The position numbers and the translations under genes were made by a program. From NCBI GenBank assembly GCA_964353355.1, contig CAYGVT010000017.1:24567-88566 (forward strand): a stretch of 64,000 nucleotides of DNA, written 5' to 3'. Of this stretch, positions 1 to 26,940 are shown one piece after another (the stretch's first letter is position 1; every line of letters starts with the position of its first letter). The DNA comes from an uncultured Thermoplasmata archaeon. GTDB lineage: Archaea > Thermoplasmatota > DTKX01 > GCA-020343715. The notes beneath the pieces were generated by a model, which saw only the letters and a list, made by a program, of their open reading frames with translations, searched no databases and had not been told where the DNA came from.

Positions 1-447
1 CTGCAGCTCATCATCGCGCTGCTCATCGTGTCGATCGCGATGGGGATCATCTTCGAAGGGCTGCGGGCGTACTCCAAGGCGCAGTCCGAGACAGCGGCCT
101 CGTCCCTCGCGCAGGACATCGAATCCGCGGCCAGGCAGGCCGCGAAGGGCGGCAACCTGACCACCCTGCTCGTGAGGGTGAACCTGGACTCCTCGCGGGT
201 GGACCGTCTGACCTACTTCCGCATAGGGGTCGGCGACAGAAAGGACGGGATCGCCTACAAGGTGGCCAACGACGATGTCGTCCAGAGGTTCGTCGGACGC
301 CCTGTCCTCAGGCTCGTCGACGGCCAGTACGCGGATGGCCCGCTCGAGCTGGGCCAAGGGCGCTCCATCCTCTACGTGAGGCACGTGCTGGACCCCCGGC
401 TCGACCCCCCCGACTTCATAGCCGTCTGGTCCGTCCCGACGGGATGA
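1..447 (+). CDS. hypothetical membrane-anchored protein, 5'-truncated at window edge (N-terminal hydrophobic helix then soluble domain; pilin-like topology)
   Basis: Open frame from nt 1 (LQLIIALLIVSIAMGIIFEG...) to stop at 445-447; G/C-rich third codon positions; convergent with minus-strand gene ending at 450. Confidence 0.4.
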   Translation: MQLIIALLIVSIAMGIIFEGLRAYSKAQSETAASSLAQDIESAARQAAKGGNLTTLLVRVNLDSSRVDRLTYFRIGVGDRKDGIAYKVANDDVVQRFVGRPVLRLVDGQYADGPLELGQGRSILYVRHVLDPRLDPPDFIAVWSVPTG

Positions 448-449
448 CC

Positions 450-1100
450 TCAGCCTGGCCAGCATGCGAGGGAGACCATGAGCCGGAGCCCGGTCCCGGG
501 GGCGTCGCCCGCGAGCGATGCCGGCACATCGTACGTGTAGGAGGACGTGTAGACCTCGCCCTTCGGGAAGGTCCCCTCCCACGTGGGACCACCGACGCCC
601 TCGGACGTGATGAGCATGAACATGCCCATCCCCTCGGAAGGGCCCACCGCGCCCCCCGGGGGCGTCGTGTCGGTGGCCGCCATCGAGTACCCGTGCTCAG
701 GGAGGACCAAGGCGTCGAGGGAGGCCTTAAGCACGGTCCCCAGCCCCGCGTCCGCGGCGGCGGGGGCCCCCTGCCTCCGGAACGCCAGCTCCAGGCCCAG
801 GAGCTCCACCACCTTCTGGTCCCTGACCTGCACGACTTGCTGCGATGGGTCCGTGACCGTGGCATTGGGTACGGTGGACTGCAGCCAGCGCGTCAGGCCC
901 AAGGAGGTGTACCGCAGCCCGTACTCGTCGTTCTGGACGGTCGACCTGGTGCCGGTCGACAGCGTCAGCACCCATGTGCCCAGTATCGCGAGCGTGACCA
1001 CGAGGACCAGGAAGATGGTGTCGATGAGGCTGGACATCGCCCCCCTGTCCGCCATCCTGACGAGCCTGGACCGCCGCATCGGCTCAGACCTCCCAGACAC
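450..1100 (-). CDS. hypothetical protein with single N-terminal TM helix (archaeal pilin-like / class III signal-peptide-like)
   Basis: 216-aa ORF; basic N-terminus followed by hydrophobic stretch SSLIDTIFLVLVVTLAILGTWVL; third codon positions almost all G/C; overlapping plus-strand ORF 583-1773 is low-complexity antisense. Confidence 0.45.
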   Translation of the reverse strand: MSGRSEPMRRSRLVRMADRGAMSSLIDTIFLVLVVTLAILGTWVLTLSTGTRSTVQNDEYGLRYTSLGLTRWLQSTVPNATVTDPSQQVVQVRDQKVVELLGLELAFRRQGAPAAADAGLGTVLKASLDALVLPEHGYSMAATDTTPPGGAVGPSEGMGMFMLITSEGVGGPTWEGTFPKGEVYTSSYTYDVPASLAGDAPGTGLRLMVSLACWPG

Positions 1101-1644
1101 GCACGGTCAGCCTGGCGGCATGGACCTCGTCTATGTCGACGAAGATGTCGACCAACCAGACGAGCGACTGCACCTCGTAGCCGATGTCCCCCGTCCCCAT
1201 GCTGAAGGTGAGGCCATCGTGGCTCGGGTAATCGGTCAGGTCCTGGATGTAAAGCTCCCACCCGAACTCGCCCTCGGTGTGAAGGCTCCGGTTGAAATCG
1301 GCGAAGAGCCCCTCGCCGTCGGTCCCCCCATCCGAACCCCCCTGCTCATAGGAGCCCCTCAGCGCGGCAAGCTTGGCACCGCTGTACAGGCCCTGCTCGC
1401 GGTACATGTCCTCGAGGAGCAGAGGGTGGTTGAGGACGGTGGTCGAGATGGACAGGCAGTCCTCGTACAGGTCCAGCCTCCTGTCGTAGTCTGCCTTGGT
1501 CTCGTACACCCCCGTGAGCGAGACCACGAAGAGGATCACGACCGTCACGACGACTGTGAATGCCAACAGCTCTCCCACTGGGCCCTCGAGCCCCGCATCG
1601 TCGCGCCTAAGACGATGGGCTGGCGCATAGGTACGGATGGCCAT
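1084..1644 (-). CDS. hypothetical protein with N-terminal TM helix (pilin-like), paralogous topology to 450-1100
   Basis: ORF 1084-1743. Internal Met at 1644 (MAIRTYAPAHRLRRDD... then LLAFTVVVTVVILFVVSLTG) is preceded on the minus strand by a TATA-like GGTAATAT element (plus-strand 1671-1678) about 30 nt upstream, so I take the start as 1644. Confidence 0.4.
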   Translation of the reverse strand: MAIRTYAPAHRLRRDDAGLEGPVGELLAFTVVVTVVILFVVSLTGVYETKADYDRRLDLYEDCLSISTTVLNHPLLLEDMYREQGLYSGAKLAALRGSYEQGGSDGGTDGEGLFADFNRSLHTEGEFGWELYIQDLTDYPSHDGLTFSMGTGDIGYEVQSLVWLVDIFVDIDEVHAARLTVRVWEV

Positions 1645-1762
1645 CCAGTGCCTCCAAGGCACTATCCAACATATTACCTTTTTGCTGGCAAGGCCCGGGC
1701 TGGCATCGCCATCCGGCTGGCCGACCTCCAGGGCCGAACACAAAGGATATTAAGCCATAGGG

Positions 1763-1812: not shown

Positions 1813-3315
1813 ATGGAAGTGAAGGTGCACTACTTCAAACCGACGGGGGATGTCGAGACTATCGACAAGATGGAGGTGGACAGCAAAGAGACCATCCGTG
1901 ACGTCAAGGAGAAGCTCATGATGTACTACGGATTGAGCGACGACCTTGCCGACCCCTACTGTCTGGGGACCCACATGACCCCTTCGCCCCCAGATGAGAC
2001 GATTGTCGGGGACCTCAAGATCAAGTCCGGCGCCATCATGTTCCTGCGCAAGGCCTCCGTGCCCCCGCCACCGCCGCCCGCATCGGCCAAGGGCATGCTC
2101 CTCACGCTGAAGGAGGGTACCTCACGCAAGGTCCTCCTGAGCCGGGACGACGCCGTGCAGCTCGCCGTGGACCACGGGGACCTTGTGCGCCTCTCCGACC
2201 CCGTGAGCGGCATCTCGGTCGTGGGCAAGGTGGAGGTCTCGGACGGACTGACGATAGGGTCCTGCGAGATCGATCAGACCCTCGTCGACTCGATCGGCTC
2301 CTCCGAGGAGATGGAGGTGAGCGTCCAGAAGTTCGACTCGGGCAAGCTGCGCACGGTGTCCGGCATAACGTTCGGCATCAAGCCGATCGGGGGCATGTCG
2401 GACACGGACGCGGTCCTCCTCGTGAGGGAGAAGGAGGAGGCCCTGCTCAGCTTCATGGACAAGTCAATCATCGTGAAGGGCCAGAAGTTCAGGTGGGACG
2501 CGGGGGGGGTGCTGGTCTACATCCTGAACACCCAGCCGCCCCTGGGCCACGACGAGGTCGCGGTGGTATCGAACGAGATCCTCGGCGAGTACAAGTACCA
2601 GGCCTGGGGCGTGGAGCCGAACTTCGACGGCGTCCTGCTCATCGACCTCTCCTTCTCCATGAACACCGAGGACATGCCTGTCCGGAACATGGACCAGGCG
2701 ATCAAGTACCTGGGCTCAGGCTTCGAGGACAACGACACAAAGGCGTTCCTCGGCGGCTTCAAGGACGGGGGGCAGTGCCGCAGGCTCGAGGGCGCCATAC
2801 TCTCGGCCATCATGTACCTGGCGGGCAAGATCGGCCGCGGCAAGGGCGAGCGCGTGGCATTCGTGCTGTTCAGCACCGAGGCCAACTTGATAGACTTCTC
2901 GGGCTCCCCGTTCTACGACGCGACGATGAACAGGGACCTTTCGGGCATCGCCCGCAAGCTCATCACCACCACCAACACGATGGAGATGCTCGGTACCAAC
3001 ATGACCAGCGCCCTCGAGGCGGCCCTCTGGGTGTCAGAGCGCATGGGCCAGAACAAGATGAAGATGATAGTGATCCTCACGGACGGCTACCCGGACGACG
3101 AGGCGAAGGTCCGTGAGTACGTGGAGAAGGTCATCGCGCCCAAGCCGGACATCGTGGTCTTCGGGGCGGGCATCGGCCAAGAGGTCAACCAGGAGTTCAT
3201 GCACGCCATCACCACCTCCACCGGTGGCGAGTTCCTGCAGGTGAAGAGCCTGGACGAGCTCACCGAGTGGTACAGCAACCTCGCCCGGAAGCTCGAGTTC
3301 AAGGGAAGGAGGTAA
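1813..3315 (+). CDS. ubiquitin-like (beta-grasp) domain plus small beta-barrel domain plus von Willebrand factor A (vWA) domain protein
   Basis: 500 aa. N-terminal ~80 aa (MEVKVHYFKPTGDVETIDKMEVDSKETIRDVKEKL...IKSGAIMFLRKA) has a ubiquitin-like beta-beta-alpha pattern followed by a PPPPPP linker. Middle LTLKEGTSRKVLLSRDDAVQLAVDHGDLVRL resembles AbrB/Cdc48-N-type barrels. C-terminal vWA with MIDAS DLSFSMNTED, then MKMIVILTDGYPDD and VVFGAGIG. Confidence 0.8.
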   Translation: MEVKVHYFKPTGDVETIDKMEVDSKETIRDVKEKLMMYYGLSDDLADPYCLGTHMTPSPPDETIVGDLKIKSGAIMFLRKASVPPPPPPASAKGMLLTLKEGTSRKVLLSRDDAVQLAVDHGDLVRLSDPVSGISVVGKVEVSDGLTIGSCEIDQTLVDSIGSSEEMEVSVQKFDSGKLRTVSGITFGIKPIGGMSDTDAVLLVREKEEALLSFMDKSIIVKGQKFRWDAGGVLVYILNTQPPLGHDEVAVVSNEILGEYKYQAWGVEPNFDGVLLIDLSFSMNTEDMPVRNMDQAIKYLGSGFEDNDTKAFLGGFKDGGQCRRLEGAILSAIMYLAGKIGRGKGERVAFVLFSTEANLIDFSGSPFYDATMNRDLSGIARKLITTTNTMEMLGTNMTSALEAALWVSERMGQNKMKMIVILTDGYPDDEAKVREYVEKVIAPKPDIVVFGAGIGQEVNQEFMHAITTSTGGEFLQVKSLDELTEWYSNLARKLEFKGRR

Positions 3316-3319
3316 GGGG

Positions 3320-6300
3320 TTGGCATGGCGGCCCACCCCCGAGCCTGACGAAGAGAGGATGGCCCGCGAGGAGGTCCTGAGGCTCCAGACGGAGCTCAAC
3401 CGGCTGTACCTAGCCGGCCATCCAATCGCTCACTTCGAACGCAGGCTCGATGACCTGAAGGGGGAGATGCGGGGGGACAGGTTCGAGGAGTCCCTCCGAC
3501 GGGCCAGGGAGCTTCTATCGGAGCTGGATGGGTACAAGCGGGCGGTCCTCGCCTCGAGCGCCCTGCTTCTGGAGGTCCGGTCGCTGACGGCCAAGGCCAA
3601 CCTGATCGGCATCGATACCGTGCTGGCGAAGGTCGACGTGGACCGGGCGGAGGCGATGCTCCAGAAGGGAGAGCTGGAGGGTGCCATGGCCCTGGCACGG
3701 CCTCATCTGGTACGGCTCAGGCAGACCGTCTGGGAGTACGAGGTCGCGCGCGATGCGGTGCTGCTCGCCCAGCAGACCATCTCGAGGCTATGGGCGTCCG
3801 GCACCGACGTCTCGGAGCACGAGCGCACCCTCGGGAAGGCCCGCGCGGAGATGAGGAGGAGGGACTACGCCCGCGCGCTCGAGCTGGCCCATGAGGCGAG
3901 CCCGGACAGGTCTGCCGCGGAGACCGAGCGGCAGACCGCGTCGAGGCTCGCGGCAAGCCTACGCGACCTCTTGGGCGTCGCCCAGGGCAAGGGCATCGAC
4001 ACGGCCACGGCCGAGGGGGCCCTGCAGGAAGCGGAATCCCAGCTGGGGCGGGGGATGATGGGCGTCGCCATGAGGCATGCCCAAAGGGGAATAGACGAGC
4101 TGGACCCGCGCATCATGGCCTACGACCATGTGGAGGAGCTGGGCAAGAAGGCGCTCGAGGTGTACTCGACCATCGCCGCGACGGTCGGGCATGGGTCCGG
4201 CGTCGAGGCCGAGCTTGGGAGGCTCAAGCCGCTCCTCGCAGAGGGACGTGCAGAGGAGGCACGGTCACTGGCCACCGAGCTCATCGAGCGGCTCACTGCC
4301 CAGAGGGACGTCGTCGCCTCGTTCTGCGCGCTGCGCGCCCCGACCGTCAGGTACCTTGCCGAGCTCCGCGGGAGCGGGGGCGCGGACGTGGACCGGGCGG
4401 ACGAGCTCATGCGGGATGGTGAAAGGCTCTACGCCTCGTGGGACTTCAACGGCGCGTTGGAACGCCTCAAGTCGGCGAACGACGCACTGCTGGGCGCCCT
4501 CGCGACGCCCCGGGGCATGGACCGCCTGGAGCGGGCCATCGCGCGGGCCCTCGGTGAGGCCTCGAGCGAGAGCCTGCGAACCGAGCTCGCAGGCAGGCTG
4601 GAGGAGGGCCGCCTCGTCAGGGAGCGGTCCGGGCCCAAGGAGGCCTACAGGGCGCTCGAGGAGGTCCGCTCCACCCTGAGGGCGTCCGCGACCGGCGCGA
4701 GGGGCCATGCGGGCACGTCCCTGGAGGAGGGCGAATGGACCGCCGGGGGCCTGCTCGACGAGGGGGGCCAGGGCGCCCTGGGCGGCATCGGCCATGCGTC
4801 CGCGGCAGAGGAGCGGTACGAGCACGAGGCGATGCTCGAGCACGAGCAGGCGATATTGGGCGAGATAGCCAGAATGTCGGCCGACCTCCAGCAGATCGGC
4901 GCGGACCCCGGCATGCTCAAGGAGATCGGCACGGACGTCCGTGACCTCCTGCGGGCCGGCGATGCCATCGGCACCGACCTGCTGTTGATGCATGCCAGGC
5001 GGCTCGCGGCGCCCAACCGCTTCGCCTTCTCGCACGGCGTGGAGATGGAGATGGGACTGGTCTACCGCGACGGGTCCTGGGTGACGGGCGAGCGGGTCAC
5101 CCGGGTCATCTCGGACCTCGTCGAGGAGGGCGTCAAGCTGCTCCGCAGGACCATCGACGAGGGCAAGGTCCCCTCCTACGTGAGCAAGCGGATCGTCGAT
5201 GTCCGGCTGGCCCAGCCGAGCCACCCCAAGAGGGGGAAGGTGGTGGAGGTCGACTACATGGTCGGCGGGCAGCTCGTGACGATAGACGTGCTGGGGAGGG
5301 ACGCGCATGGGTCCGGCACGACGTACATACTGGAGCTCGTGTCCCCGCCGTGCGTGTACGTGGAGGAGCTCCTGTGGTGGCTCCACACGCTCCAGCGCAT
5401 CTCATGCGCCATCTTGGGCGTGAGGCACCCTGACGTCCTCCCCATCTCCGTGGGACTGAACCCTGCCCAGCCCTATTCCGAGTGCATCTCGTTCGGGGAC
5501 CATCACCACATCAAGCTCCCCGACGAGGCGTCGCGCAGGGCCGCCTTCAACATGCTGCGCGCCCATGTGCCGCACCTCATCGCCCTCACCGTGAACTCCC
5601 CGATATACAAAGGCGACGTCCCCGCCATCAGGTGGGACGGTTCGCATCCCATCCAGCTCGGCTCGAGGACGGACCCCCTGTCACTGAGGCTCAGGGAGAA
5701 CATAGGGCAGCTGGGCCCGATCGGGGGCGCCTACATCCCATACCTGCGGGAGGGCGATGGCCAGGACCACTTCACGAGTGCCGTGAGGAAGGCATCGGCG
5801 GCCGACGCCCGGCTCGTGGACATCTACCCCTTCACCCGGTTCGGGACCATCGAGATCAGGTTCTTCGACGCCCAGCTCTCGGTCGTCGACAGGGTCGCCC
5901 TCGCGGTCATCATCCAGTCGCTGTGCGCCTGGGCGGTGCGTCAGATGCGTGAGGGGGGGGAGGGCCCCGAGGTCGACCCCCAGGTCCTGCTCGAGAACAG
6001 GGACAGGGCCATCCAGAAGGGGATGCTGCTGGGGTTCAAGAAGGACAAGACGCTCGCGACGGCGCACCCTGGCTTCGCGAGGCTCTACCAGTCGGAGGGG
6101 GAGGGCGGTGCAAGGAGCGTCCAACGCATACACGACGCGGTCAAGAGGATGTTGGAGAACATCCGCCCCGAGATGGAATCCATCGTCCCCCCCGGTGGCC
6201 TGGGCGGCAGCCTCGACACATACTTGGTCATGGTCCATGGCGGGGACAAGCGCGTGATCCCGCCGCCCATCACGCCCAGCCAATTCCTGGTGTACAAAAC

Positions 6301-7072
6301 GATGATGATGAACAACGACGTCCCCGCGCTGGTGAGGTACATCAGCTCGATCGTCCAGAAGTGCGGGAGGAACTCCAGGTACAACCCCATCGTGGAGGCG
6401 CTGGGGGCGCCAGACCTCTGGTCCTCGGAGGTGCGGCCATCCCAGGCCCCTGGCCAGGGAGGGTTGGGGGTCATGGGAGCCGGCGGACCGGGCGGTACGG
6501 ATGGCGGGGGGGCCGTCCCGACGACGACCGGCGCCTCGCCATCCGGGCCCGACGCGGCATGGTCGCCCAAGGCAGGGGCGGATGGCGACGCCCAACTGCC
6601 CCCGAAGGCACGAGGGACCGCCATCCATCTGGCAGGAGCCCCGTCGCCCGCCGGGCCACCTGCGGGGGCCACGACGGAGACCCCTCCCGAGGTCCAGATG
6701 GCAGGCGCACCCCTCCCTCCCCATGCTGGCCTCTCGACGGATGCACCGGGTCGCAGGGATGGTGGAACGGAACACGGGGGCGGGATGGCAGGGCAGCCCG
6801 TCATGGTCGGCGGAGCCATCGTGGCCCAGGTGGAGGACATACCGGTCCCCACCGACGCGCGCGCGGGGAGCGCGGAACACCCCCTGAGCTGCGGCTCGTG
6901 TCATCACGAGGTCGAGCCAGGCTTCCTCTTCTGCCCTCGCTGCGGGTCGCAACTGACCCCATCGTGCCCCTCATGCGGGAACGCGGCGACGCAATCGGGG
7001 CTCTTCTGCCAGCACTGCGGCCATCCCTTGGGACAGGGGACCACCGTCCAGGCCAGGGGTGAGCAGCGTTGA
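3320..7072 (+). CDS. large multidomain protein: N-terminal alpha-helical/coiled-coil region (~550 aa), GCS2/YbdK-type carboxylate-amine ligase domain, Gly/Pro/Ala-rich linker, C-terminal double zinc ribbon
   Basis: 1250 aa. Residues ~560-950 match YbdK/GCS2 motifs: FSHGVEMEMGLV (vs YbdK LGIELEMQVV), GDHHHIKLPD (vs HVHVGC), HLIALTVNSPIY (vs HFIALSAASPYM), FTRFGTIEIRFFDAQ (vs HFGTVEVRVMDT). C-terminus CGSCHH...FCPRCG...CPSCGN...FCQHCG is a DZR-type zinc ribbon. 4-nt gap to upstream gene. Confidence 0.85.
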   Translation: MAWRPTPEPDEERMAREEVLRLQTELNRLYLAGHPIAHFERRLDDLKGEMRGDRFEESLRRARELLSELDGYKRAVLASSALLLEVRSLTAKANLIGIDTVLAKVDVDRAEAMLQKGELEGAMALARPHLVRLRQTVWEYEVARDAVLLAQQTISRLWASGTDVSEHERTLGKARAEMRRRDYARALELAHEASPDRSAAETERQTASRLAASLRDLLGVAQGKGIDTATAEGALQEAESQLGRGMMGVAMRHAQRGIDELDPRIMAYDHVEELGKKALEVYSTIAATVGHGSGVEAELGRLKPLLAEGRAEEARSLATELIERLTAQRDVVASFCALRAPTVRYLAELRGSGGADVDRADELMRDGERLYASWDFNGALERLKSANDALLGALATPRGMDRLERAIARALGEASSESLRTELAGRLEEGRLVRERSGPKEAYRALEEVRSTLRASATGARGHAGTSLEEGEWTAGGLLDEGGQGALGGIGHASAAEERYEHEAMLEHEQAILGEIARMSADLQQIGADPGMLKEIGTDVRDLLRAGDAIGTDLLLMHARRLAAPNRFAFSHGVEMEMGLVYRDGSWVTGERVTRVISDLVEEGVKLLRRTIDEGKVPSYVSKRIVDVRLAQPSHPKRGKVVEVDYMVGGQLVTIDVLGRDAHGSGTTYILELVSPPCVYVEELLWWLHTLQRISCAILGVRHPDVLPISVGLNPAQPYSECISFGDHHHIKLPDEASRRAAFNMLRAHVPHLIALTVNSPIYKGDVPAIRWDGSHPIQLGSRTDPLSLRLRENIGQLGPIGGAYIPYLREGDGQDHFTSAVRKASAADARLVDIYPFTRFGTIEIRFFDAQLSVVDRVALAVIIQSLCAWAVRQMREGGEGPEVDPQVLLENRDRAIQKGMLLGFKKDKTLATAHPGFARLYQSEGEGGARSVQRIHDAVKRMLENIRPEMESIVPPGGLGGSLDTYLVMVHGGDKRVIPPPITPSQFLVYKTMMMNNDVPALVRYISSIVQKCGRNSRYNPIVEALGAPDLWSSEVRPSQAPGQGGLGVMGAGGPGGTDGGGAVPTTTGASPSGPDAAWSPKAGADGDAQLPPKARGTAIHLAGAPSPAGPPAGATTETPPEVQMAGAPLPPHAGLSTDAPGRRDGGTEHGGGMAGQPVMVGGAIVAQVEDIPVPTDARAGSAEHPLSCGSCHHEVEPGFLFCPRCGSQLTPSCPSCGNAATQSGLFCQHCGHPLGQGTTVQARGEQR

Positions 7073-9579
7073 CGGGCCCGATCATCGATGCCAGGGCGCT
7101 CCTGGGCCTGCTGCGTGCGACCAGCCCCTCAGGCTGCGCGCTCTGCGGTGGAAGTGCACGTGTAGTGTGCACAAGGTGCCGGTCGCGCGTCTGCCCTGAG
7201 TGCGATGCCGGGGCCGATGGCACGGGACGGAAGAAAGGCCGGAGGGGAGGGCGCGGGCCGGCCGTGTGCCTGGCCTGCGCGCTGGAAGGAGGTGACGCCC
7301 CCAACGCCGCCAGGGTCGTGGAGGCACGGCTGTCCGACCTGAACTTGATGGTGAAGGACCTCAAGTCGGGGGGGGGGACGGTCGGGCCGGGCGCGCTGAT
7401 CAGGCCCGCGCATGCCACGCTGCTCCAGCTCGCCTGCCTTGAATCGGTGCTGGGCAGGGAGGGGCTCGAGGCATCCTCCACAGTCCTGAGGCGAGGCCGG
7501 CCGTTCCTCTTGAGGAACCTGGGCCATGCCCTGTCCATCACGGCGGAGGCCGGCCGGCCGACACAATCCAGGGTCGGCGAGCAGCTCGACGCGTACTATG
7601 GCTCGGTAGTTGCCCTGCTGAGAGGTCCGCCCAGGCCCGCTGGGGAGGCCCCTTCCGTCGATGGCGCCGATGGGGACGGGCTATCGTGGGCGCTCGCCAT
7701 CGAGGTGGGGCTGGACAGATTGCGGAGGTACTTCAGCTTCCATCACCTGGACGAGCCAGGGACGACCGTCGATGCCCTCCTCGGACGGGTCTCCAGGAGC
7801 CTGGATGATACGCTCGCCACATCGTCGCCATCGCCTGCCTCGGTCCAGATCGCCGCCATCAGGAAGGTCCTGTTGGAGGTGGATGGGTTTGACGACTACG
7901 ACTCCACGGCGCTGCGGCGATATCTGGACCCCTCCATGGCGGAGACGATCGACGTCCCGGAGATGTCGGCGTTCGTCCGGAGGCTCCTCATCGCCGAGCT
8001 CCTGCTCGCCCTCGCCATCGCCAGGACCGAGGCCGCACCGACCATCCCGGGGAGCGTGAGGGACGACCTGGACACGGACATCGAGAGGCTCGGGACGACG
8101 ATAGGGCGCCTGCTCAGGGCGGCGGACGAGAGGGGGGGTCGGCCCAGCGCGCTGCCCGGCCTCCTCGAACGCGCGCAGTCGGCCACGTTGTCGGCCATGC
8201 GAGCGGCCGTGAGAGCGCGGAGGGCGGCAAGGGCCGGGTCCTATGCTAAGTCGCTCGTGGCGGCGATGCGGGCGATCGTCTGCCTGGAGGGCGTCAGCCT
8301 GCTGCACGAGGCCGCGTTCGGCATGGGCCCCAGGGAGGCCGACATCTGGGACGTGCTCGATGCCTGGACGACCGAGCTCCTCGAGAGCAGCGCCGCCACG
8401 GCCATCGCGGCGCAGGGGGCGCAGGGCGGGCCATGGGACGCAGCGCAGGTCCGTCGCGTCCTTAACGCGACCGATGCCCTGGAGACGAGGTTCGTGGGCA
8501 TGCTCGAGGGTCTGGGCGCCTCATCGAAGGCCGACACCGGGTACATCAGGCCCGCCCACGATCATCTGTGGGGACTGGTCAGATCGATGGTCCTGGCACG
8601 CCTCGCCCCCTCCCCCGACCCCACCGCCCTCATGGGTGTCGTGGGCGGATCCACGGACGACCTCCGCGACCTGCTGGCCCTGAGAAAGGCTCATGGCAGG
8701 CCCCCATCGACCAGGCAGGACGCCTGGTTCGAGGCCAGCCTGGATTCCCTGCGGGCGATGGCCTCCCCGGCCCCCTCCGTCGTGGCCCCCCAGACCCCGG
8801 TGGTCGAGACGGCCGCGGTCCAGGAGGTCGCCGTGGCGGTCCGTCCCGTGCGGCCACCGCCATCCCCGCTCGAGGAGCTGGGCCTCGAGCGCATACTCGG
8901 GGCGTTCGGCGACGCCCCCAGGCTCGTTCGGTGCGGGGGCCTGGGCGCGGGGGGGCTCGTGGCGGTCCTTCTTCCCGGGACGGTGGAGGCGCTCGAGGGG
9001 CTCGAGGGCCGTCTCGGGGGCCGTCTCGGGGGCTCGATATCGATATCTGAAGACCACCTCTCGGCAAGGCTCGTGGCGGTCCCCAGGACGGACGACGTCT
9101 GGGAGGCCAGGGAGCTTGCGCGGGAGGCGTCGCTGCTCCAGATTCTGGCACAGGGCACCCCGGCGGGCGGCCCGGTCACGCTCATCGCCTTCGCATCGCT
9201 CCCTGCGCCTGGAGGGCCGATGGCGATACTCTCGGACACCTGGATCGTCTCGGAGGAGCGCACGGTGAGGCAGTGGGGCCGCCGGGAGGCCCCCGCCTCC
9301 TCCACCGTCTCCGGGCCCATGGACGGCCTGCATGCGGCGCTCTCGAGGGCCGGAGGAGTGACGGTCATCCGGGACGATGGCGGGGCCTACCTGCAGGGAT
9401 GGCTATGGGGCCTCCTGCGCGAGCTGCGGCTCAGGGAGGGCGCGTTGGAGGGAGCGCCCGACGTCCGCGCCGTGCAGCTCGCGGGGAATGCGGCCTTCTA
9501 TCGCTGGCTGTCCGAGGATGGGGCGCGCGATGGCTCCTTTGGAACGACGCTCGATGCCCTCTCACAGGGGGCGGGGTGA
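7069..9579 (+). CDS. hypothetical protein with N-terminal 8-Cys zinc-binding module (4x CxxC) and long Ala/Leu/Arg-rich helical region
   Basis: 836 aa. Starts TTG in a TTGA overlap with the stop of the preceding gene. CALCGGSARVVCTRCRSRVCPECD...VCLAC gives four CxxC pairs (binuclear treble-clef/RING- or B-box-like spacing). No other recognisable motif. Confidence 0.7.
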   Translation: MTGPIIDARALLGLLRATSPSGCALCGGSARVVCTRCRSRVCPECDAGADGTGRKKGRRGGRGPAVCLACALEGGDAPNAARVVEARLSDLNLMVKDLKSGGGTVGPGALIRPAHATLLQLACLESVLGREGLEASSTVLRRGRPFLLRNLGHALSITAEAGRPTQSRVGEQLDAYYGSVVALLRGPPRPAGEAPSVDGADGDGLSWALAIEVGLDRLRRYFSFHHLDEPGTTVDALLGRVSRSLDDTLATSSPSPASVQIAAIRKVLLEVDGFDDYDSTALRRYLDPSMAETIDVPEMSAFVRRLLIAELLLALAIARTEAAPTIPGSVRDDLDTDIERLGTTIGRLLRAADERGGRPSALPGLLERAQSATLSAMRAAVRARRAARAGSYAKSLVAAMRAIVCLEGVSLLHEAAFGMGPREADIWDVLDAWTTELLESSAATAIAAQGAQGGPWDAAQVRRVLNATDALETRFVGMLEGLGASSKADTGYIRPAHDHLWGLVRSMVLARLAPSPDPTALMGVVGGSTDDLRDLLALRKAHGRPPSTRQDAWFEASLDSLRAMASPAPSVVAPQTPVVETAAVQEVAVAVRPVRPPPSPLEELGLERILGAFGDAPRLVRCGGLGAGGLVAVLLPGTVEALEGLEGRLGGRLGGSISISEDHLSARLVAVPRTDDVWEARELAREASLLQILAQGTPAGGPVTLIAFASLPAPGGPMAILSDTWIVSEERTVRQWGRREAPASSTVSGPMDGLHAALSRAGGVTVIRDDGGAYLQGWLWGLLRELRLREGALEGAPDVRAVQLAGNAAFYRWLSEDGARDGSFGTTLDALSQGAG

Positions 9580-9582
9580 CCG

Positions 9583-11157
9583 ATGCTCCGGTTGACAGAC
9601 GACTCTGGCAGGTCGCACGGCTTCCTCGTGGCGGACGTCCACCACCACGTCGGCAGCGAGGGCCAGACGAGGAACCTCAACCCCAAGGAGCCGAACGGCT
9701 CGTACGACTTCTTCAGGGGGGTCCAGTACGGGTCCGAGTCCAAGCCAGGTCTGGCGACCATCCTCAGGGATTCCGACGCCTTCAAGTACCACATCACGGG
9801 GGGGGAGGCGTTCCCCCCTCATCCCATGCTGAGGTGCCTCTCCCTCGCCGACGAGCGGATGGGGAGGGCCTTCGAAGGGAGCTGGGCCATCGACCTGTCC
9901 GTGGCGTTCCCGATGCACGACGACTTCCGCTCCAACGACGTCGTCGAGTACAGGGCCTCCAACAGGCGGCTTGCCAAGGTCGTCGGTGTCCTGCCGAACA
10001 GCCTGAGGTTCATCCCGTGGGGAAGGGTCAACCCGGACGACGGGGCGGTGGCGTGCGAGGAGCTGCACAGGGCCGCCTCAGAGGACGGCATCAGGGGCCT
10101 CAAGCTCCATCCCAAGAGCGAGGGGTTCGACCTCGAGGGGGCGGGGTTCAGGCTGGTCCTGCGCGCGGCGGCGAGGCATGCCCTCCCCGTCATCCTGCAC
10201 ACCGACTGGAAGAGCGACCGCCGCCGCATCGTCGAGGCCGTCGACGACACCATCGTCGCGCTCGCGTCGGAGGGCGACGTGGGGGCGATAGCCGACCTGC
10301 GGGTCATCCTGGGGCACTTCGGGTGGGCCGTGGACCCGGAGATGATAGGCTTCATAGCGCACCCCTGTGTCTACGGTGAGGTCTCCGGGCTGCGCGGCAG
10401 GGGAGCGACGGAGTTCTTCAGGATCGCGAGGGACCACTTCCCCGACCACAGGTGGGACGCCTCGGCCCTCCTTTCGAGGGTCCCAGACCCGTCCAGCGTG
10501 TCCAGGGCGCTCCGCCCGGGGATAGTGGGGGACTGGTCGAGGAAGGTGATGTACGGGTCGGACAACCCCTTCCTCAACCAGAACAACTCCATCGACACCA
10601 TCGGCGCCATCTTGGGCAGGGAGCTCGACCTCACGGCCCTCGAGGTGGCGAACATCCTGGGCCTGAACGCGCTCGCGCTCTTCGCCAACGGCGCCGACGG
10701 GATGGACGGTGGCGGCCGTCCAGCGCCACCGGCGATGACCGTCCCTGGCCAAGTCCCGTTCTCAGGCACCCTGGAGGATGGCGCCCTCTTCCTGGCGGTC
10801 ATGCTGAAGGGCCTGCCCCAGAACATGAGAAGGGTGCGCTTCGTCCCGCTGCTGGCCGCCGAGCCACAGCCCCGGCTGCTGCCCGAGCTGGGGGTGCTGC
10901 ACGTGTCGGGGCGCGAGGAGAGCGGGACCTCGTTGCTCTCGGTCCAGCTGGGGGCCACGGGTCGGATGGGGTTCATGGCAATCGATTGTCCCGCATTCCC
11001 GCCCGCTGCCCTCGGGGACCCCCTGTCCCAGCTCGTCGCCGATGGCCTCGTCGCCGCGGCATCGAGGCAGCCAGGTTGCCAGGCGGCCACGATGGCGGAG
11101 GCGCTCGTGCTGTCACGGTTGGGCACCCGTGGCGGGGAAGAAGCCCAGGAGGATTGA
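9583..11157 (+). CDS. amidohydrolase-2 family (TIM-barrel metal-dependent hydrolase)
   Basis: 524 aa. FLVADVHHHVGSE near N-terminus, GLKLHPKSEG, PVILHTDW, ILGHFGW and MYGSDNPF are spaced as in PF04909-type metal-dependent hydrolases. 4-nt gap from upstream gene. Confidence 0.75.
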   Translation: MLRLTDDSGRSHGFLVADVHHHVGSEGQTRNLNPKEPNGSYDFFRGVQYGSESKPGLATILRDSDAFKYHITGGEAFPPHPMLRCLSLADERMGRAFEGSWAIDLSVAFPMHDDFRSNDVVEYRASNRRLAKVVGVLPNSLRFIPWGRVNPDDGAVACEELHRAASEDGIRGLKLHPKSEGFDLEGAGFRLVLRAAARHALPVILHTDWKSDRRRIVEAVDDTIVALASEGDVGAIADLRVILGHFGWAVDPEMIGFIAHPCVYGEVSGLRGRGATEFFRIARDHFPDHRWDASALLSRVPDPSSVSRALRPGIVGDWSRKVMYGSDNPFLNQNNSIDTIGAILGRELDLTALEVANILGLNALALFANGADGMDGGGRPAPPAMTVPGQVPFSGTLEDGALFLAVMLKGLPQNMRRVRFVPLLAAEPQPRLLPELGVLHVSGREESGTSLLSVQLGATGRMGFMAIDCPAFPPAALGDPLSQLVADGLVAAASRQPGCQAATMAEALVLSRLGTRGGEEAQED

Positions 11158-11160
11158 ACG

Positions 11161-12465
11161 ATGGACCGGACCGCTCTCACCCTCAAGTTCGCTGCAATCG
11201 ATGAATCGAAGATAGCCCTCTCCCCGGCTGACGCTGCGACGCTCGGTGTGGACGTCGGGGACATAGTGAGGGCCATGGACGAGAACTCCATGGAGCTCGG
11301 CGGCGCCAAGGTCGAGGTCAGGGGCGACGTCGAGACGGGCTCGTTCCTGGCCAGCGAGCAGTTCGCCGAGTCGCTCGCCATGGACGAGGGCTATCCGTAC
11401 ACCCTCGAGCGTTACGATGGCGAGATGGACGTGTCGCTCGAGACGGTGATCCTGGACATCACCGAGATGGGCGCCAGGACAGACATGGGGAGGAGCGTCA
11501 CGAGGGGGCATAGCGCGTTCGAGGGCTTCCTCCGTGGCAAGGTCATCAATCGCGGGCTGAAGCTGAGATGGTCCGAGATGGGTGTGAACATCGAGGTCCG
11601 GCAGACGGTCCCGCCCCTGCGGGACAACCAGTACGTCATAGTTGGGGACATCGCCAAGATGGAGCTCTACGCCGTCGGTGTCCCGTTCAACGGCATCCTC
11701 CTCGTGGACGTCAGCAAATCCATGAACGAGACGGACATGGTCGTGGATGACCGCGTCCTGCCCATGCTCAGCAGCCTCCACTACCTGGCGGACAATGCTA
11801 TGCCGGCCATGCACGACTACATCGCCCGCATCGAGAAGAGCGATCGGATACGGAGGATCGACTCGGCGGCCCTGTCGGCGATGCTGTACCTCTCCGAGAA
11901 GGTGGCGAGGGGCCAGGGGGAGAAGACCGCGATCATAACGTACTCGGACCGCGCAGAGCCGCTCTCGTACAGCCTCAGGGAGGGCGATGCCGTGATAGAG
12001 GTCCCATGGTACGACCTCTCCAAGGGCAGCGTGGGGGAGGATGAGAGGCGGGAGGCCGCCGTCGTCATCGGTGATGCGCTGCTGATGCGCATCGAGCGGG
12101 CCGAATCGAAGAACACCAACATGGAGGCGGCGCTCCTGCAGGCCAAGAGCGTGATAGAGATGATGAAGGCCAAGGAGGCCGGGTCCGCTCAGGGCCCTCC
12201 CAAGCCCATCATGGTCGTCTTCCTCACCGACGGCGAGTACAACGTCGGTCGCTCACCTGTGCGGGTGGTCCAGGAGGCCTTCAAGGCCCTCGAGGGGGTC
12301 GTGGTCCACACCGTGGGGATCGGGGGCAGCGTCGACGAGGCGCTCCTGAAGAGGGTCGCCGAGCTCGGGGGGGGGGAGTACTGCAAGGCCCAGAACCTCG
12401 TGGAGCTCGTCGACTTCTACAGCAGGAACGCGAAGCGGTTCGGGACCAGCGCCTTGCTGAGATGA
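11161..12465 (+). CDS. vWA domain protein (paralog of the C-terminal two-thirds of 1813-3315)
   Basis: 434 aa. N-terminal LTLKFAAIDESKIALSPADAATLGVDVGDIVRA matches the barrel module of the first gene. vWA with MIDAS DVSKSMNETD, IMVVFLTDGEYN and VHTVGIGG. 4-nt gap from upstream gene. Confidence 0.8.
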   Translation: MDRTALTLKFAAIDESKIALSPADAATLGVDVGDIVRAMDENSMELGGAKVEVRGDVETGSFLASEQFAESLAMDEGYPYTLERYDGEMDVSLETVILDITEMGARTDMGRSVTRGHSAFEGFLRGKVINRGLKLRWSEMGVNIEVRQTVPPLRDNQYVIVGDIAKMELYAVGVPFNGILLVDVSKSMNETDMVVDDRVLPMLSSLHYLADNAMPAMHDYIARIEKSDRIRRIDSAALSAMLYLSEKVARGQGEKTAIITYSDRAEPLSYSLREGDAVIEVPWYDLSKGSVGEDERREAAVVIGDALLMRIERAESKNTNMEAALLQAKSVIEMMKAKEAGSAQGPPKPIMVVFLTDGEYNVGRSPVRVVQEAFKALEGVVVHTVGIGGSVDEALLKRVAELGGGEYCKAQNLVELVDFYSRNAKRFGTSALLR

Positions 12466-12520: not shown

Positions 12521-13015
12521 TCACGGCCCTCGCACAGGGATCTGCTTGGTCACGTCGCCACCCATGGTCGATTGGCCCCCCGAGGCCTTGATGGTTATGA
12601 AGGCCCCTTCGCTGCCAGGGAGGTCGAACGTGAGGTCGTCAATCACCGCCTTGCCGTATTTATCGGTCGATGCTGGTATCATTGTGAATCCAGGGCCAGT
12701 GATCTCGACCTTGGCACCATCCACGCCGCTGTTCTTGGTGTCGAGGACCTTCAGTTCCAACTTGATCTTGGCGGGGCTGGTGCTGCACTGATAGAGCGTC
12801 CCGCTCTTCCACTCGGCGTTTTCAATAACCGTGATGGTGACCTCTATCTTGTCTATCTGGTCCTTGCTGATGTTAGAAATAAGGTACGCGATCGTCGCTA
12901 TGACCAGGATGGCCACGATAATGGCTATCAGGAGCGTGATGGCCTCCATGCCCCCGTCCTGGGGCCTGAACCGATGCAAGCGATAACTCCCTCTCCTCAA
13001 CTCGTTCCCCTCCAT
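12521..13015 (-). CDS. small secreted/membrane-anchored beta-rich protein with pilin-like N-terminal TM helix; low-GC gene
   Basis: ORF 164 aa (alternative start Met23 at 12949: MEAITLLIAIIVAILVIATIAYLI). TATA-like GGTATATATAG at 13043-13053 upstream on the minus strand. Local GC about 55% versus 68% surroundings. Confidence 0.6.
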   Translation of the reverse strand: MEGNELRRGSYRLHRFRPQDGGMEAITLLIAIIVAILVIATIAYLISNISKDQIDKIEVTITVIENAEWKSGTLYQCSTSPAKIKLELKVLDTKNSGVDGAKVEITGPGFTMIPASTDKYGKAVIDDLTFDLPGSEGAFITIKASGGQSTMGGDVTKQIPVRGP

Positions 13016-13470
13016 CGAGTGGTCGTGTAATGTTGAAGCAGGGTATATATAGTTTGCCAGGCGATAGAATTTGGCCAGGGTCGAATGGGAGGGCCTCCCT
13101 CATCGAGGGGCCGTCCCTGCGTCCCTGCGTCGAGGATGCGAGCGGGTCGGTCGCACCGGAGGTCGGGGGTCGCCATCGAAAGATGGTGCACATCGAGCAA
13201 GAAGGTCGGTCGAGGTGCTGACCATAGGGGCCGGGTGGAGGGCCGTCACCGATTGCCATGGGGATGGTCATCGGGGGGCGGGTCGCATCCGGGGGCGCGA
13301 AGCACTGACGGGAGACCGAGTCGGCCCCCCCATACCCTTGTCGATGGGAGCAAGAACCTGGGGACCGATCGACTGCACCGCCCCTCTCGCTTGGATTGGC
13401 ATCTGGGGAGGGAACGAAGGATTATATAGTGACCCTTCCTATATTCCAAGGCGGAGGAAAGGTGGATCCC

Positions 13471-17654: not shown

Positions 17655-17990
17655 CGGAAGGCTTTTTAATACCCTGGGGCCATAGATTCCCGGTAAGGGA
17701 GGGAAGCCCGGGTGAGGAAGTCACTAGTGGTGGGGGTCCTAGCGGTCCTGCTCGCATTGCCAACCTTCGTAGGCCTACCGCATGAGGCCCCCGCGGACGG
17801 TCAGCCTTGGGACGAGGCTCAGGTCGGACCGCGCATCACCGCACCGAATCTGGCCGAGGTCTCCGAGATATTCCGTGGCCTCCAGGGTTTCTTCACCGAG
17901 AACCTCGGCCTGGTCGACAATCCCGAGGTCAGATTCTACGCGCAGGGGGACGCTCTGTCGGTTGGGTTCACGCTCGATGGCCTCATCCTA
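17655..17990 (+). repeat. duplicated promoter plus 5'-CDS module (copy A), ~80-85% nucleotide identity to 26605-26940
   Basis: Aligned by eye: ...TTTTTAATACCCTGGGG...GGTAAGGGAGGGAAGCCCGGGTGAGGAAG...GGTCCTAGCGGTCCTGCTCGC...TTCTACGCGCAGGGGGA... shared with the region upstream of and within gene 26660. Confidence 0.7.
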
Positions 17991-26604: not shown

Positions 26605-26940
26605 GCAAGGTTTTTTTATTCCCCAGGGTCTTGGTTGCTAGGTAAGGGAGGGAAGCCAGGTGAGGAAGACAGTGATGGTGGGGGTTCTAGCGGTCCTGCT
26701 CGCTTTGCCAACTCTCGTGAGCCTGCCGCAAGGTGCCCCTGCAGACGGGCAGTCCTCGGACGGGGCCCGGGTCGTCCCACGCACCACCGCACCAGACCTG
26801 GCCGAGGTGTCCGGGATGTTCCATGGCCTCCCGGGTTTCCTCACCGAGAACCTCGGCCCGGTCGACAACCCCGAGGTCAGGTTCTACGCGCAGGGGGATT
26901 CTCTCTCCGTAGGCCTCCCACGCGACGGGCTCATCATCAC
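26605..26940 (+). repeat. duplicated promoter plus 5'-CDS module (copy B), counterpart of 17655-17990
   Basis: GGTTTTTTTATTCCCCAGGG...GGTAAGGGAGGGAAGCCAGGTGAGGAAG...GGTTCTAGCGGTCCTGCTCGC...TTCTACGCGCAGGGGGA. Confidence 0.7.

Follow-up and report, generated by a model that had tools for sequence, protein, structure and literature searches.

Among the described systems, the one closest to the locus reported here is the archaellum module of Sulfolobus acidocaldarius, in which the cytoplasmic vWA proteins ArnB and ArnE (PDB 8S05, 5A8J) form a paralogous pair that has partners with zinc-ribbon and FHA domains, and whose function is linked to a type IV filament. The zinc-ribbon domain of ArnA is a binding partner of ArnB, whose MIDAS is intact; besides the vWA, ArnB has an inserted CnaA-like beta-sandwich and, at its C-terminus, a helical bundle that is phosphorylated, and it has neither a Cdc48-type N-domain nor a ubiquitin-like (Ubl) domain (PMC6509490, PMC12852372). 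A regulatory role of vWA proteins in archaeal type IV pili (T4P) has also been predicted before (PMC4858521).

Other described systems share single domains with this locus. The N-domain of Cdc48, p97, and VAT and the UT3 domain of Ufd1 consist of a double-psi beta-barrel and a beta-clam, and in Cdc48, p97, and VAT the N-domain is followed by the AAA+ domains D1 and D2. The p97 N-domain binds UBX and Ufd1 UT3 binds ubiquitin; in eukaryotes, the module takes UBX, UBL, and ubiquitin folds, and the second (beta-clam) half of the p97 module forms half of the UBX-binding cleft. YukD/EsaB and the N-terminal Ubl of EccD, which belong to type VII (WXG100) secretion, are non-conjugated beta-grasp adaptors in an ATPase-driven machine. 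As cited in PMC6509490, the MIDAS of midasin (Rea1) grips the UBL of Ytm1/Rsa4 via an acidic residue. Midasin is thus a precedent for a MIDAS-bearing vWA-like domain that holds a Ubl, although it belongs to a eukaryotic AAA+ machine for ribosome assembly and has no sequence kinship to the protein described below beyond the folds. Finally, a vWA domain stands in a ubiquitin-related setting, together with UIMs, in Rpn10/S5a, and in a multi-protein-assembly setting in the vWA-MoxR ternary systems.

We analyzed a stretch of 64,000 nucleotides from a Thermoplasmatota archaeon (the window) and describe five of its genes, A to E, whose features are collected in Table 1. The intergenic spacing of A-B-C-D-E is 4, -4, 3, and 3 nt in the ORF list, the start of gene C overlapping the stop of gene B by 4 nt, which indicates a tight operon. 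A and E are its outer genes, with B, C, and D between them, and the gene order is kept in relatives whose A is 66-68% identical. Since no signal peptide or transmembrane segment is found in either sequence, A and E are predicted to be cytoplasmic.

Table 1. Features of operon A-E and of the adjacent small genes (residue numbers refer to the protein named; nucleotide positions refer to the window).
Feature	Residues	Position (nt)	Strand	Basis or remark
Gene A: Ubl - Pro linker - Cdc48-type N-domain - vWA	500 aa	1813..3315	+	ORF, ATG start
A, predicted Ubl beta-grasp domain	1-81	1813..2055	+	AF2, Foldseek, sequence profile
A, flexible linker	82-94 (S82; PPPPPP = 84-89)	2056..2094	+	Read from sequence
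A, double-psi beta-barrel (Cdc48/VAT N-domain, Nn subdomain)	~95-177	2095..2343	+	Profile, Pfam, hhalign
A, second subdomain, probably Nc beta-clam of Cdc48 N-domain	~178-270	2344..2622	+	hhalign collinearity
A, vWA	271-500	2623..3315	+	Pfam VWA, MIDAS conservation
A, predicted MIDAS	D278-x-S280-x-S282 (DLSFS), T395, D424	2644-2658 (DLSFS)	+	Sequence
Gene B: YbdK/GCS2-type carboxylate-amine ligase with zinc ribbons (probable)	1250 aa	3320..7072	+	
B, helical part	N-terminal ~550 aa			
B, YbdK/GCS2-type ligase core	~575-905	~5042-6034	+	
B, low-complexity linker				Between ligase core and double zinc ribbon
B, double zinc ribbon	1187-1237	6878-7030	+	Pfam DZR
Gene C: N-terminal Cys4 zinc-ribbon-like motif + helical protein	836 aa	7069..9579	+	Unassigned to any family
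Gene D: Amidohydro_2 metal-dependent hydrolase	524 aa	9583..11157	+	
Gene E: Cdc48-type N-domain + vWA, without Ubl	434 aa	11161..12465	+	ORF
E, N-domain	1-180	within 11161..12465	+	BLASTP to A
E, vWA	181-434	within 11161..12465	+	Pfam VWA
E, predicted MIDAS	D183-x-S185-x-S187 (DVSKS), T319, D357	11707-11721 (DVSKS)	+	Sequence
Small protein, putatively pilin-like		28-447	+	Short charged leader + one N-terminal hydrophobic helix
Small protein, putatively pilin-like		450-1100	-	Short charged leader + one N-terminal hydrophobic helix
Small protein, putatively pilin-like		1084-1743	-	Short charged leader + one N-terminal hydrophobic helix
Fourth small protein, putatively pilin-like, downstream of operon		12521..13015	-	N-terminus ...RPQDGGMEAITLLIAIIVAILVIATIAYL, leader + hydrophobic helix

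The initial annotation had proposed that the first ~80 residues of A are ubiquitin-like, with strand, strand, helix, and terminal strand in this order, and that a poly-Pro linker follows. The AF2 model of residues 1-89, which was built on an 8-sequence alignment (pLDDT 89.9, pTM 0.79), agrees with this pattern: it shows beta-strands at residues 2-8, 14-21, 49-52, and 75-80, a helix at 28-39, and a short helix at 65-68. Foldseek returned 231 PDB matches to the model at E<=1e-3, the best 50 of which were all NEDD8, ISG15, ubiquitin, or Ubl domains, with a probability of 1.0, TM up to 0.79, and rmsd of 2.4-2.9 A; in the structural alignments, the identity to ubiquitin and NEDD8 was 20-26%. The profile of the eight Ubl sequences gave 316 matches among PDB sequences, and the best 60 were all ubiquitin, ubiquitin-derived binders, or UBL/RA beta-grasp domains. 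A designed ubiquitin variant was matched at E=3.9e-8, and mono-ubiquitin at E of about 2e-3 to 5e-3, with profile positions 12-77 aligned to ubiquitin residues 7-69. The region is kept in every one of the four orthologues, even where overall identity is as low as 43%, and is therefore a genuine domain rather than an accidental extension. On this model, residues 1-81 of A are a true beta-grasp ubiquitin-like domain. Its sequence is without the UBX-type "FPR" loop, and a protein homologue search with the Ubl alignment gave no match. The six prolines of the linker were also found as annotated; linker length varies (~40 aa and acidic in the family member P0004), and S82, which comes after a basic motif, is invariant in 8/8 homologues.

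An earlier AF2 model of residues 1-89, based on only 4 sequences, had a pLDDT of 66.9, and Foldseek gave no ubiquitin-like match to it, the best matches being GAF and OSR1-CCT with TM<=0.36. The missing match was due to the poor quality of that model and was cured by four more distant homologues. On its own, the 4-sequence model would have argued against a Ubl fold.

The "small barrel" that the initial annotation placed after the linker can now be refined. The best PDB matches to the family profile were all double-psi beta-barrel (DPBB) folds, including the Cdc48 DPBB (7dg9, E=0.0077). Pfam CDC48_N was matched by 8 of the 74 family members, at best with 3.8e-7 and short of the gathering score, and Pfam Molydop_binding by 16. 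When compared by hhalign with approximate versions of the VCP, Cdc48, and VAT N-domain sequences, whose errors could only lower the score, the first half alone reached a probability of 93.5% (E=2.4e-7), against 0.3% for a reversed-sequence control, and the whole module was collinear with VCP 34-185 (94.9%, E=4.1e-8), whereas the second half alone gave a weak match (P=0.017, probability 2.6%). The profile of this second subdomain had no significant match among PDB sequences. These comparisons suggest that the middle module of A is a Cdc48/VAT-type N-domain, of which the double-psi barrel is well supported and the second half weakly. In A, the vWA comes directly after the N-domain, in the place of D1/D2, and Pfam found no AAA match there. 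Thus, A shares a domain with the Cdc48/VAT/p97 AAA+ family, here combined with a tethered Ubl, but is not a member of that family. The other large ORFs that were scanned with Pfam did not include a Cdc48 gene.

The vWA domains of A and E were both above the gathering cutoff of Pfam VWA (PF00092; 42.8 bits with E=8.6e-11 for A, 31.2 bits for E, cutoff 23.8), and the DLSFS and DVSKS motifs were present as the initial annotation had read them. The completeness of the two sites was a point to be checked, and DxSxS, T, and D were present in both. Orthologues of gene A have identities of 68, 66, and 43%. The five MIDAS positions of A do not vary among the four orthologues and paralogue E, and across 31 family members each is either invariant or conserved to at least 90%; the MIDAS of E is invariant among its close relatives (gene E orthologues, 72-40% identity). 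Both sites are complete in sequence and are predicted metal sites. BLASTP aligned A residues 97-494 with E 6-427 at 29% identity (E=1e-39) and found no counterpart in E of the first ~95 residues of A, which bears out the description of E as a barrel-plus-vWA paralogue without the Ubl.

The best PDB matches of the A vWA profile, PTMP1 (2e-14), ArnB (8s05, 5.8e-13), and ArnE/vWA2 (5a8j, 1e-10), make ArnB and ArnE the closest solved archaeal vWA proteins by profile, with a match limited to the generic vWA core. A and E resemble them in being a pair of archaeal vWA paralogues, predicted to be cytoplasmic, with an intact MIDAS and an extra beta-rich domain. The zinc-ribbon and FHA partners of ArnB and ArnE may also have a parallel, for which the candidates are the zinc-ribbon proteins B and C in the operon, and a Ubl-FHA protein (P0054) and a Ubl-zinc-ribbon protein (locus L008) among the relatives. 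However, the vWA of A runs up to the C-terminus, residue 500, so that there is no space left for the additional ArnB domains, and A falls outside the ArnB subfamily (arCOG02900). Moreover, arnA and arnB are reported to lie outside T4P or archaellum loci and never to occur within T4P loci (PMC4858521), whereas operon A-E is embedded in a pilus-like locus. As far as this analogy reaches, it is one of function, not of family membership.

The type IV pilus-like character of the surroundings comes from two sources. T2SSE ATPase and T2SSF-like platform genes are located just upstream, outside the window, as seen in the related loci L003, L004, and L006, and T2SSE and T2SSF are also present in L008. 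In the window, four small proteins next to the operon appear pilin-like by their leader and hydrophobic helix; the three within 28..1743 had no Pfam match. In two other related loci, the contigs are short and without T2SSE: L001, which has an A-type gene with Ubl, has AglB/STT3 and CARDB proteins as neighbours, and L010 has flotillin/NfeD. The pilus link is therefore recurrent, not universal.

Taken together, we tentatively favor the explanation, with a rough probability of 0.4, that A and E are a pair of cytoplasmic non-enzymatic adaptors for the surrounding type IV pilus-like machine and a functional analogue of ArnA/ArnB. Each MIDAS would clamp an acidic residue of a partner, and this partner could be the pilus ATPase or one of the zinc-ribbon proteins B and C. 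The N-domain may dock the Ubl in cis, resulting in auto-inhibition; alternatively, the Ubl of A may dock in trans on the N-domain of the Ubl-less E, so that A and E assemble head to tail. Formation of the complex would then be switched by the Pro-rich tether. In the most speculative step, B and D might place an amide-linked mark on some component of the system and take it off again. Several observations weigh against this explanation: the second half of the N-domain is weakly matched, the Ubl lacks an "FPR" loop, the pilus link is not universal, B and C were seen only in the clade of the studied locus, and ArnA/ArnB differ in their accessory domains and their gene context.

The enzymes of the operon offer another explanation. 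In the alignment with YbdK (1r8g), B keeps FGDHHHI, NSPIY, and FGTIEIRFFD, and it also carries the GVEMEM and ILELVSPPC motifs of YbdK/GCS2. B matches NCBIfam TIGR02050 with E=1e-15 at 57.9 bits (curated cutoff 176) and Pfam GCS2 at 19.9 bits (cutoff 21), suggesting that it is a divergent member or relative of the YbdK/GCS2 carboxylate-amine ligases, a superfamily that includes both PafA and Dop (PMC2588565). D matches Pfam Amidohydro_2 (PF04909, E=8e-17) and, in the PDB, the LigW-type 4inf (E=5e-4). C has only weak, sub-threshold zinc-finger matches in Pfam and no relative in NCBIfam or the PDB; its orthologue in L003 shows 28-37% identity. A and E could accordingly be substrate adaptors or regulators of an enzyme pair, in which B ligates by PafA-like chemistry and D performs a Dop-like reversal; the mark would be an amide or isopeptide, and the pilus genes would be targets or mere neighbours. 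We regard this as unlikely, if by no means far-fetched. Besides the ligase motifs, B has large regions suited to interaction (the ~550-aa helical part and the double zinc ribbon), A-B-C-D-E are translationally packed and conserved, B adjoins A in L003, L004, and L006, and in L008/L009, a divergent locus, a D homologue (31% identity) is directly upstream of the E-type vWA gene. However, no B homologue is visible in L008 or L010, though the A/E pair persists there. Furthermore, the scores of B fall far short of the curated cutoffs of the family, and the Amidohydro_2 relatives of known structure act on small molecules, as decarboxylases or hydrolases.

The enzyme and adaptor readings could be combined, although we see this as a long shot. 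The operon would then be a hitherto unrecognized, E1/E2-free archaeal protein-marking system. Parts of the filament machine would receive an amide or isopeptide mark, which the ATP-dependent GCS2-type ligase B, with PafA-like chemistry guided by its helical and zinc-ribbon regions, writes and D erases, while A and E serve as reader and adaptor via a Ubl-N-domain contact ancestral to UBX-p97.

The Ubl also brings to mind the proteasome and Cdc48 (VAT) shuttle factors, such as Rad23, Ddi, and Rpn10. In such a role, a degradation machine would be the docking site of the Ubl, and a client would be held by the N-domain and vWA. The Ubl model superposes on shuttle-factor UBLs (Ddi2 UBL, TM 0.71), the RAD23 UBL is among the Ubl profile matches, the fold of Rpn10 is a vWA, and Thermoplasmatota possess VAT and 20S proteasomes. 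Nevertheless, we consider the role improbable: no proteasome, VAT, or PAN gene was found in the studied or related loci, UIM and UBA motifs are absent, and the conserved neighbours are pilus genes. The Rpn10-like receptor logic of the initial annotation is not borne out by this context.

Nor did its second analogy, to bacterial vWA-based conflict systems, find support, and an anti-virus role of the vWA-MoxR ternary or Ubl-conjugation defence type is very improbable. Both vWA and Ubl domains occur in prokaryotic conflict systems (PMC7159879), and the family is rare and patchy, with domain architectures that vary among members. However, Pfam and NCBIfam found no MoxR AAA+, STAND, VMAP, caspase, nuclease, or other effector domain in the operon, PADLOC matched 0/5 operon proteins, there are no mobile-element or phage neighbours, and gene order is stable at 66-68% identity; in the related loci, too, no MoxR, no third component (VMAP, iSTAND, FtsH), and no effectors were found.

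That the Ubl is a conjugatable modifier, detached from the N-terminal end of A and then joined to target proteins in the manner of SAMP, Urm1, or the bacterial Ubl type, is already largely refuted by sequence and hardly credible, since, despite its ubiquitin-like fold, its 20-26% identity to ubiquitin and NEDD8, and a ligase-type enzyme within the operon, the Ubl is N-terminal and runs into RKAS-VPPPPPP, Gly-Gly follows the last strand in 0/8 homologues, Pfam and NCBIfam found no E1/ThiF (MoeB), E2, RING, or JAB gene in the operon and its flanks, and relatives carry the same Ubl fused to FHA, zinc-ribbon, or vWA modules, which is what one would expect if it were an adaptor. By sequence, the Ubl of A is thus an internal tethered domain and not a conjugatable tag. 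With no Gly-Gly end, no E1/E2/JAB, and no MoxR, the operon is neither a conjugation system nor a known defence system.

The distribution of the family is in keeping with the view of the initial annotation that this architecture is non-standard for archaea. We found 68 representatives of the N-domain plus vWA family among 1.84 billion, and Ubl-bearing members are a handful among billions of sequences. Of two GTDB scans for related loci, one gave none and another gave one locus, and a JGI metagenome scan gave six loci with no new gene context. One A-type and one E-type paralogue occur together in three divergent loci (the studied clade, L008/L009, and L010), and a crude NJ tree shows a deep A/E split. 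In L008/L009, the gene string is E-type, a separate Ubl-zinc-ribbon gene, T2SSE, T2SSF-like, and A-type without Ubl, while in L010 the E-type and A-type genes are adjacent. In L010, the 81-aa product encoded upstream of the E-type gene was a candidate for a free Ubl, but it is not a Ubl.

The Ubl itself is found in several settings. It is fused to N-domain-vWA in P0001-4 and P0011, directly to vWA in P0066, to FHA in P0054, and to a zinc ribbon in L008, in a gene of 262 aa that adjoins the E-type gene. P0073 has a second, independent ubiquitin-family domain at its C-terminus. In relatives, the Ubl matches Pfam YukD, DUF2604, and UBL_AVO1; the P0011 Ubl is above the YukD gathering score (29.6 vs 27 bits), and P0066 matches YukD at 1.5e-4. 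Gene A itself gives no YukD match, and its context differs from that of YukD/EsaB/EccD in being archaeal and that of a type IV filament. These varied fusions and adjacencies look like a Rosetta-stone pattern, and the Ubl is a lineage-specific addition to the N-domain-vWA family.

Our analysis defines a very small, unannotated family of N-domain plus vWA proteins, occurring as A/E pairs in uncultured Thermoplasmatota and currently labeled only "vWA domain-containing protein"; its practical value is modest for now. The ubiquitin-p97-proteasome network of eukaryotes has Ubl/UBX, the Cdc48 N-domain, and the Rpn10-type vWA among its adaptor modules, and here modules of these three types are found on one archaeal polypeptide, without an ATPase or conjugation enzyme, beside the genes of a pilus machine. 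Docking of the tethered Ubl on the N-domain (or the MIDAS), if it occurs, would be a simple prokaryotic precedent for UBX-p97 (or UBL-midasin) recognition as a pure assembly switch. It would also add to ArnA/ArnB a second, structurally different case in which a type IV filament of archaea is controlled through vWA proteins.

Both open reading frames of the initial annotation, genes A and E, are present, and their paralogy was borne out by BLASTP (29% identity, E=1e-39, A residues 97-494 against E 6-427); the first ~95 residues of A, with the ubiquitin-like (Ubl) domain, have no counterpart in E. Each protein matches Pfam VWA above the gathering score and carries a complete MIDAS metal-site motif (D278-x-S280-x-S282, T395 and D424 in A; D183-x-S185-x-S187, T319 and D357 in E), whose residues do not vary among close relatives and, in a set of 31 diverse family members, are either invariant or conserved to at least 90%. 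Only four close relatives of A (100, 68, 66 and 43% identity) were found among 5.8 billion proteins; each has retained the N-terminal domain of ~85 residues, and one is annotated as coming from a Candidatus Thermoplasmatota MAG.

Features of the window and of two related contigs
Feature	Coordinates	Strand	Length (aa)	Content
Small protein	28-447
Small protein	450-1100
Small protein	1084-1743
Gene A	1813-3315	+	500	Ubl, Pro linker, N-domain, vWA
Ser82 of A	2056-2058	+		Right after last Ubl strand
Gene B	3320-7072	+	1250	Helical N-terminal ~550 aa; divergent YbdK/GCS2 carboxylate-amine ligase core; C-terminal double zinc ribbon
Gene C	7069-9579	+	836	Cys4 zinc-ribbon-like motif at start
Gene D	9583-11157	+		Amidohydro_2 enzyme
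Gene E	11161-12465	+	434	N-domain, vWA
Small protein	12521-13015
Zinc-ribbon protein	13396-14664	+	422	N-terminal Zn_Ribbon_1 (7e-6), long Pro/Gln-rich region, several predicted TM helices
Tandem paralogue 1	17712-22115		~1470	DUF7948, SBBP beta-propeller repeat, 3-4 fibronectin type III domains
Tandem paralogue 2	22112-26539		~1470	As paralogue 1
Ig-domain protein	26660-30577			He_PIG
Peptidase_C25	33243-36317		1024	Gingipain-like
TiaS	50712-52310	+		TiaS_FLD 1e-36, TCKD 6e-33, zinc ribbon
Small Ubl protein	L008:11319-12107	+	262	Ubl, Pro-rich linker, then a short C-terminal domain, conserved but without family assignment; also a Cys4 zinc ribbon
Second large protein	L003:21229-21509, off locus end	-	1168	Weak GCS2 match

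The beta-grasp fold proposed for the N-terminus of A was confirmed with a deeper alignment. An initial AF2 model from four orthologues only was mediocre (pLDDT 66.9) and had no ubiquitin-like Foldseek match. A HMMER search with a profile of A residues 1-275 against 1.84 billion cluster representatives retrieved just 68 proteins at E<=1e-3, four of which (P0011, P0054, P0066, P0070) contain distant copies of the domain; these and the four orthologues formed an 8-sequence alignment. Its profile matched 316 PDB sequences, the best 60 being all ubiquitin, ubiquitin-derived binders or UBL/RA beta-grasp domains: mono-ubiquitin at E~2e-3 to 5e-3 (profile positions 12-77 against ubiquitin residues 7-69), a designed ubiquitin variant at 3.9e-8, the RAD23 UBL at 5.5e-3 and the RASSF5 RA domain at 1.2e-3. 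The AF2 model from this alignment (pLDDT 89.9, pTM 0.79) has the predicted order beta 2-8, beta 14-21, helix 28-39, beta 49-52, short helix 65-68, beta 75-80. Foldseek returned 231 PDB matches to it at E<=1e-3; the best 50 were all NEDD8, ISG15, ubiquitin, SUMO2, Hub1 or Ddi2-UBL (probability 1.0, TM up to 0.79, rmsd 2.4-2.9 A, 20-26% identity), in agreement with the profile and the model. Pfam assigned YukD to P0011 (29.6 bits, above the gathering score), YukD and DUF2604 to P0066, UBL_AVO1 to P0054 and, weakly, Rad60-SLD to P0070.

Because Ser82 and a six-proline stretch directly follow the domain, and none of the homologues in the 8-sequence alignment has a Gly-Gly past the last Ubl strand, the Ubl of A is, judged from sequence, a tethered domain and not a conjugatable tag. 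Ser82, invariant in 8 of 8 homologues and preceded by basic residues (RKAS, RRAS, RKSK, RKSR, RRSE), may be a phosphorylation site. P0054 combines the Ubl with an FHA phosphopeptide-binding domain, and P0066 carries it directly on a vWA without an N-domain.

The module after the linker had been described as a small barrel; the barrel stands, and PDB profile, Pfam and hhalign comparisons refine the module to a Cdc48/VAT-type N-domain. A 9-sequence profile of A residues 94-275 matched only double-psi beta-barrels in the PDB (Cdc48 DPBB 7dg9, E=0.0077; designed DPBBs; molybdopterin-binding barrels of DMSO-reductase-type enzymes), and among 74 family sequences Pfam found Molydop_binding in 16 and CDC48_N in 8 (best 3.8e-7). 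Local hhalign of a 60-sequence family alignment against the N-domains of human VCP, yeast Cdc48 and Thermoplasma VAT aligned the whole module (94.9% probability, E=4.1e-8, 144 columns) collinearly with VCP residues 34-185, i.e. both subdomains; reversed-sequence controls gave <=0.3%. The barrel half on its own scored 93.5% (E=2.4e-7). The second half alone was weak (P=0.017), though placed on the correct Nc region, and had no PDB sequence match in the profile search. We consider the barrel established by these sequence comparisons, and a beta-clam as the second half probable.

A 14-sequence vWA profile matched, in order, mussel PTMP1 (2e-14), BatA-like vWA 4rck (3.8e-13), ArnB of the ArnA/ArnB complex 8S05 (5.8e-13; PMC12852372) and ArnE/vWA2 5A8J (1e-10), with ITIH, TRAP, integrin I-domains and TFIIH p34 below. 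This is a MIDAS vWA of generic type, and among solved archaeal structures the Arn proteins are its nearest relatives. A belongs to both the Ubl fold class and the MIDAS-vWA class and shares its N-domain with Cdc48 ATPases, yet is not one; it lies outside the ArnB subfamily because its accessory domains differ, and is not a vWA-MoxR system. Our literature search found no paper joining CDC48_N with a vWA, and database names for these proteins go no further than "vWA domain-containing" or "hypothetical protein", where a name is given at all.

The N-domain+vWA family is tiny: besides the 68 cluster representatives, it was found in one GTDB species representative (Thermoplasmatota PL23a_bin.128), and JGI metagenomes (241 million records) gave six loci. 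In a crude NJ tree, the E-type clade is separate from a larger group containing the A-type proteins; Ubl-bearing proteins form a single small sub-branch with Ubl-less neighbours, so the fusion was gained recently and is specific to this lineage. Three divergent loci each hold an A-type gene together with an E-type gene: the window clade, L008/L009 (Amidohydro_2, E-type, the 262-aa Ubl+zinc-ribbon protein, two unknown genes, T2SSE, T2SSF-like, A-type without Ubl) and L010 (NfeD, flotillin, E-type, A-type). On L008 the Ubl+zinc-ribbon gene lies between those for the E-type protein and the pilus ATPase, and its product shows homology to the window Ubl (E=3.5e-7); the Ubl thus accompanies the vWA pair either as a fusion or as a neighbouring gene. 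P0070 is a similar small protein of Ubl, Pro-rich linker and the same C-terminal domain. P0073 adds a C-terminal ubiquitin-family domain to the N-domain+vWA core (residues ~497-557; PF00240 3.1e-5, TUG-UBL1 7.5e-4) and ends ...PASTAGT, without GG; it is a second, independent Ubl fusion. On L001 (GCA_040753035.1), the genes upstream of the 43%-identical Ubl-bearing orthologue P0004 encode an AglB/STT3 oligosaccharyltransferase fusion of 2234 aa, a CARDB protein and a protein of 217 aa, and no T2SSE is visible within the 12-kb contig.

Genes A to E are spaced by 4, -4, 3 and 3 nt, and their order is kept on contigs whose A is 66-68% identical, where the genes ahead of the operon encode a giant surface protein, the T2SSE ATPase, a membrane protein resembling T2SSF, and small proteins. 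B matched TIGR02050 at E=1e-15, below the curated cutoff; its motifs FGDHHHI, NSPIY and FGTIEIRFFD aligned with YbdK 1r8g, and GVEMEM and ILELVSPPC were recognized by sequence reading. BLASTP of B against the window ORFs returned B alone, so a second B-like copy is not seen in the window; on L003, the contig of the 68%-identical relative, the second large protein is convergent just past the E-type gene. C has no known family in Pfam, NCBIfam or PDB. By inspection the four small flanking proteins look pilin-like, since all of them have a short leader with charged residues and a single hydrophobic helix at the N-terminus. A further zinc-ribbon protein adjoins the operon. Beyond it, the domains of the 17712-36317 genes suggest a block of large surface proteins; GC content at 18-24 kb is 0.56-0.59 against 0.65-0.72 elsewhere, which may reflect foreign origin or compositional bias of repeats. 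The presence of an archaeal marker, TiaS (tRNA(Ile2) agmatidine synthetase), is consistent with placement in the Thermoplasmatota.

A carries a flexible, non-conjugatable Ubl, the two paralogue types are conserved as a pair, and the operon is embedded in a type IV filament locus. A and E are cytoplasmic paralogues that combine an N-domain of a protein-binding type with a MIDAS vWA of the ligand-gripping kind. In p97 the N-domain recognizes UBX and UBL folds, the homologous Ufd1 domain binds ubiquitin, and midasin uses its MIDAS to hold the UBL domains of Ytm1 and Rsa4. These precedents suggest that an N-domain or a MIDAS has the tethered Ubl as its own ligand, either in cis, where the Ubl would auto-inhibit, or in trans, where it would link A to E. 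We propose, at a probability of roughly 40%, that A and E form an adaptor/scaffold complex for the type IV filament machine, with a logic comparable to ArnA/ArnB. In that module the vWA protein ArnB, whose ligand is the zinc-ribbon domain of ArnA, controls components of the archaellum (PMC6509490, PMC12852372), and vWA proteins have been predicted to regulate archaeal T4P (PMC4858521).

Ligase B and hydrolase D could conceivably add and remove an amide mark, a weakly supported step because B is absent from the other loci keeping the A/E pair; an explanation centred on the enzymes is unlikely. Pfam and NCBIfam scans of the operon found no MoxR, E1, E2 or JAB genes, and we give little weight to conjugation or proteasome shuttling; a defence role is similarly improbable, as no PADLOC model matched any of the five operon proteins.

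Gene A brings familiar domains together in an arrangement that is new and suggestive, within a very rare archaeal family. With the function inferred throughout, this architecture is striking for the study of the origins of ubiquitin-system adaptors and of archaeal surface-filament control.
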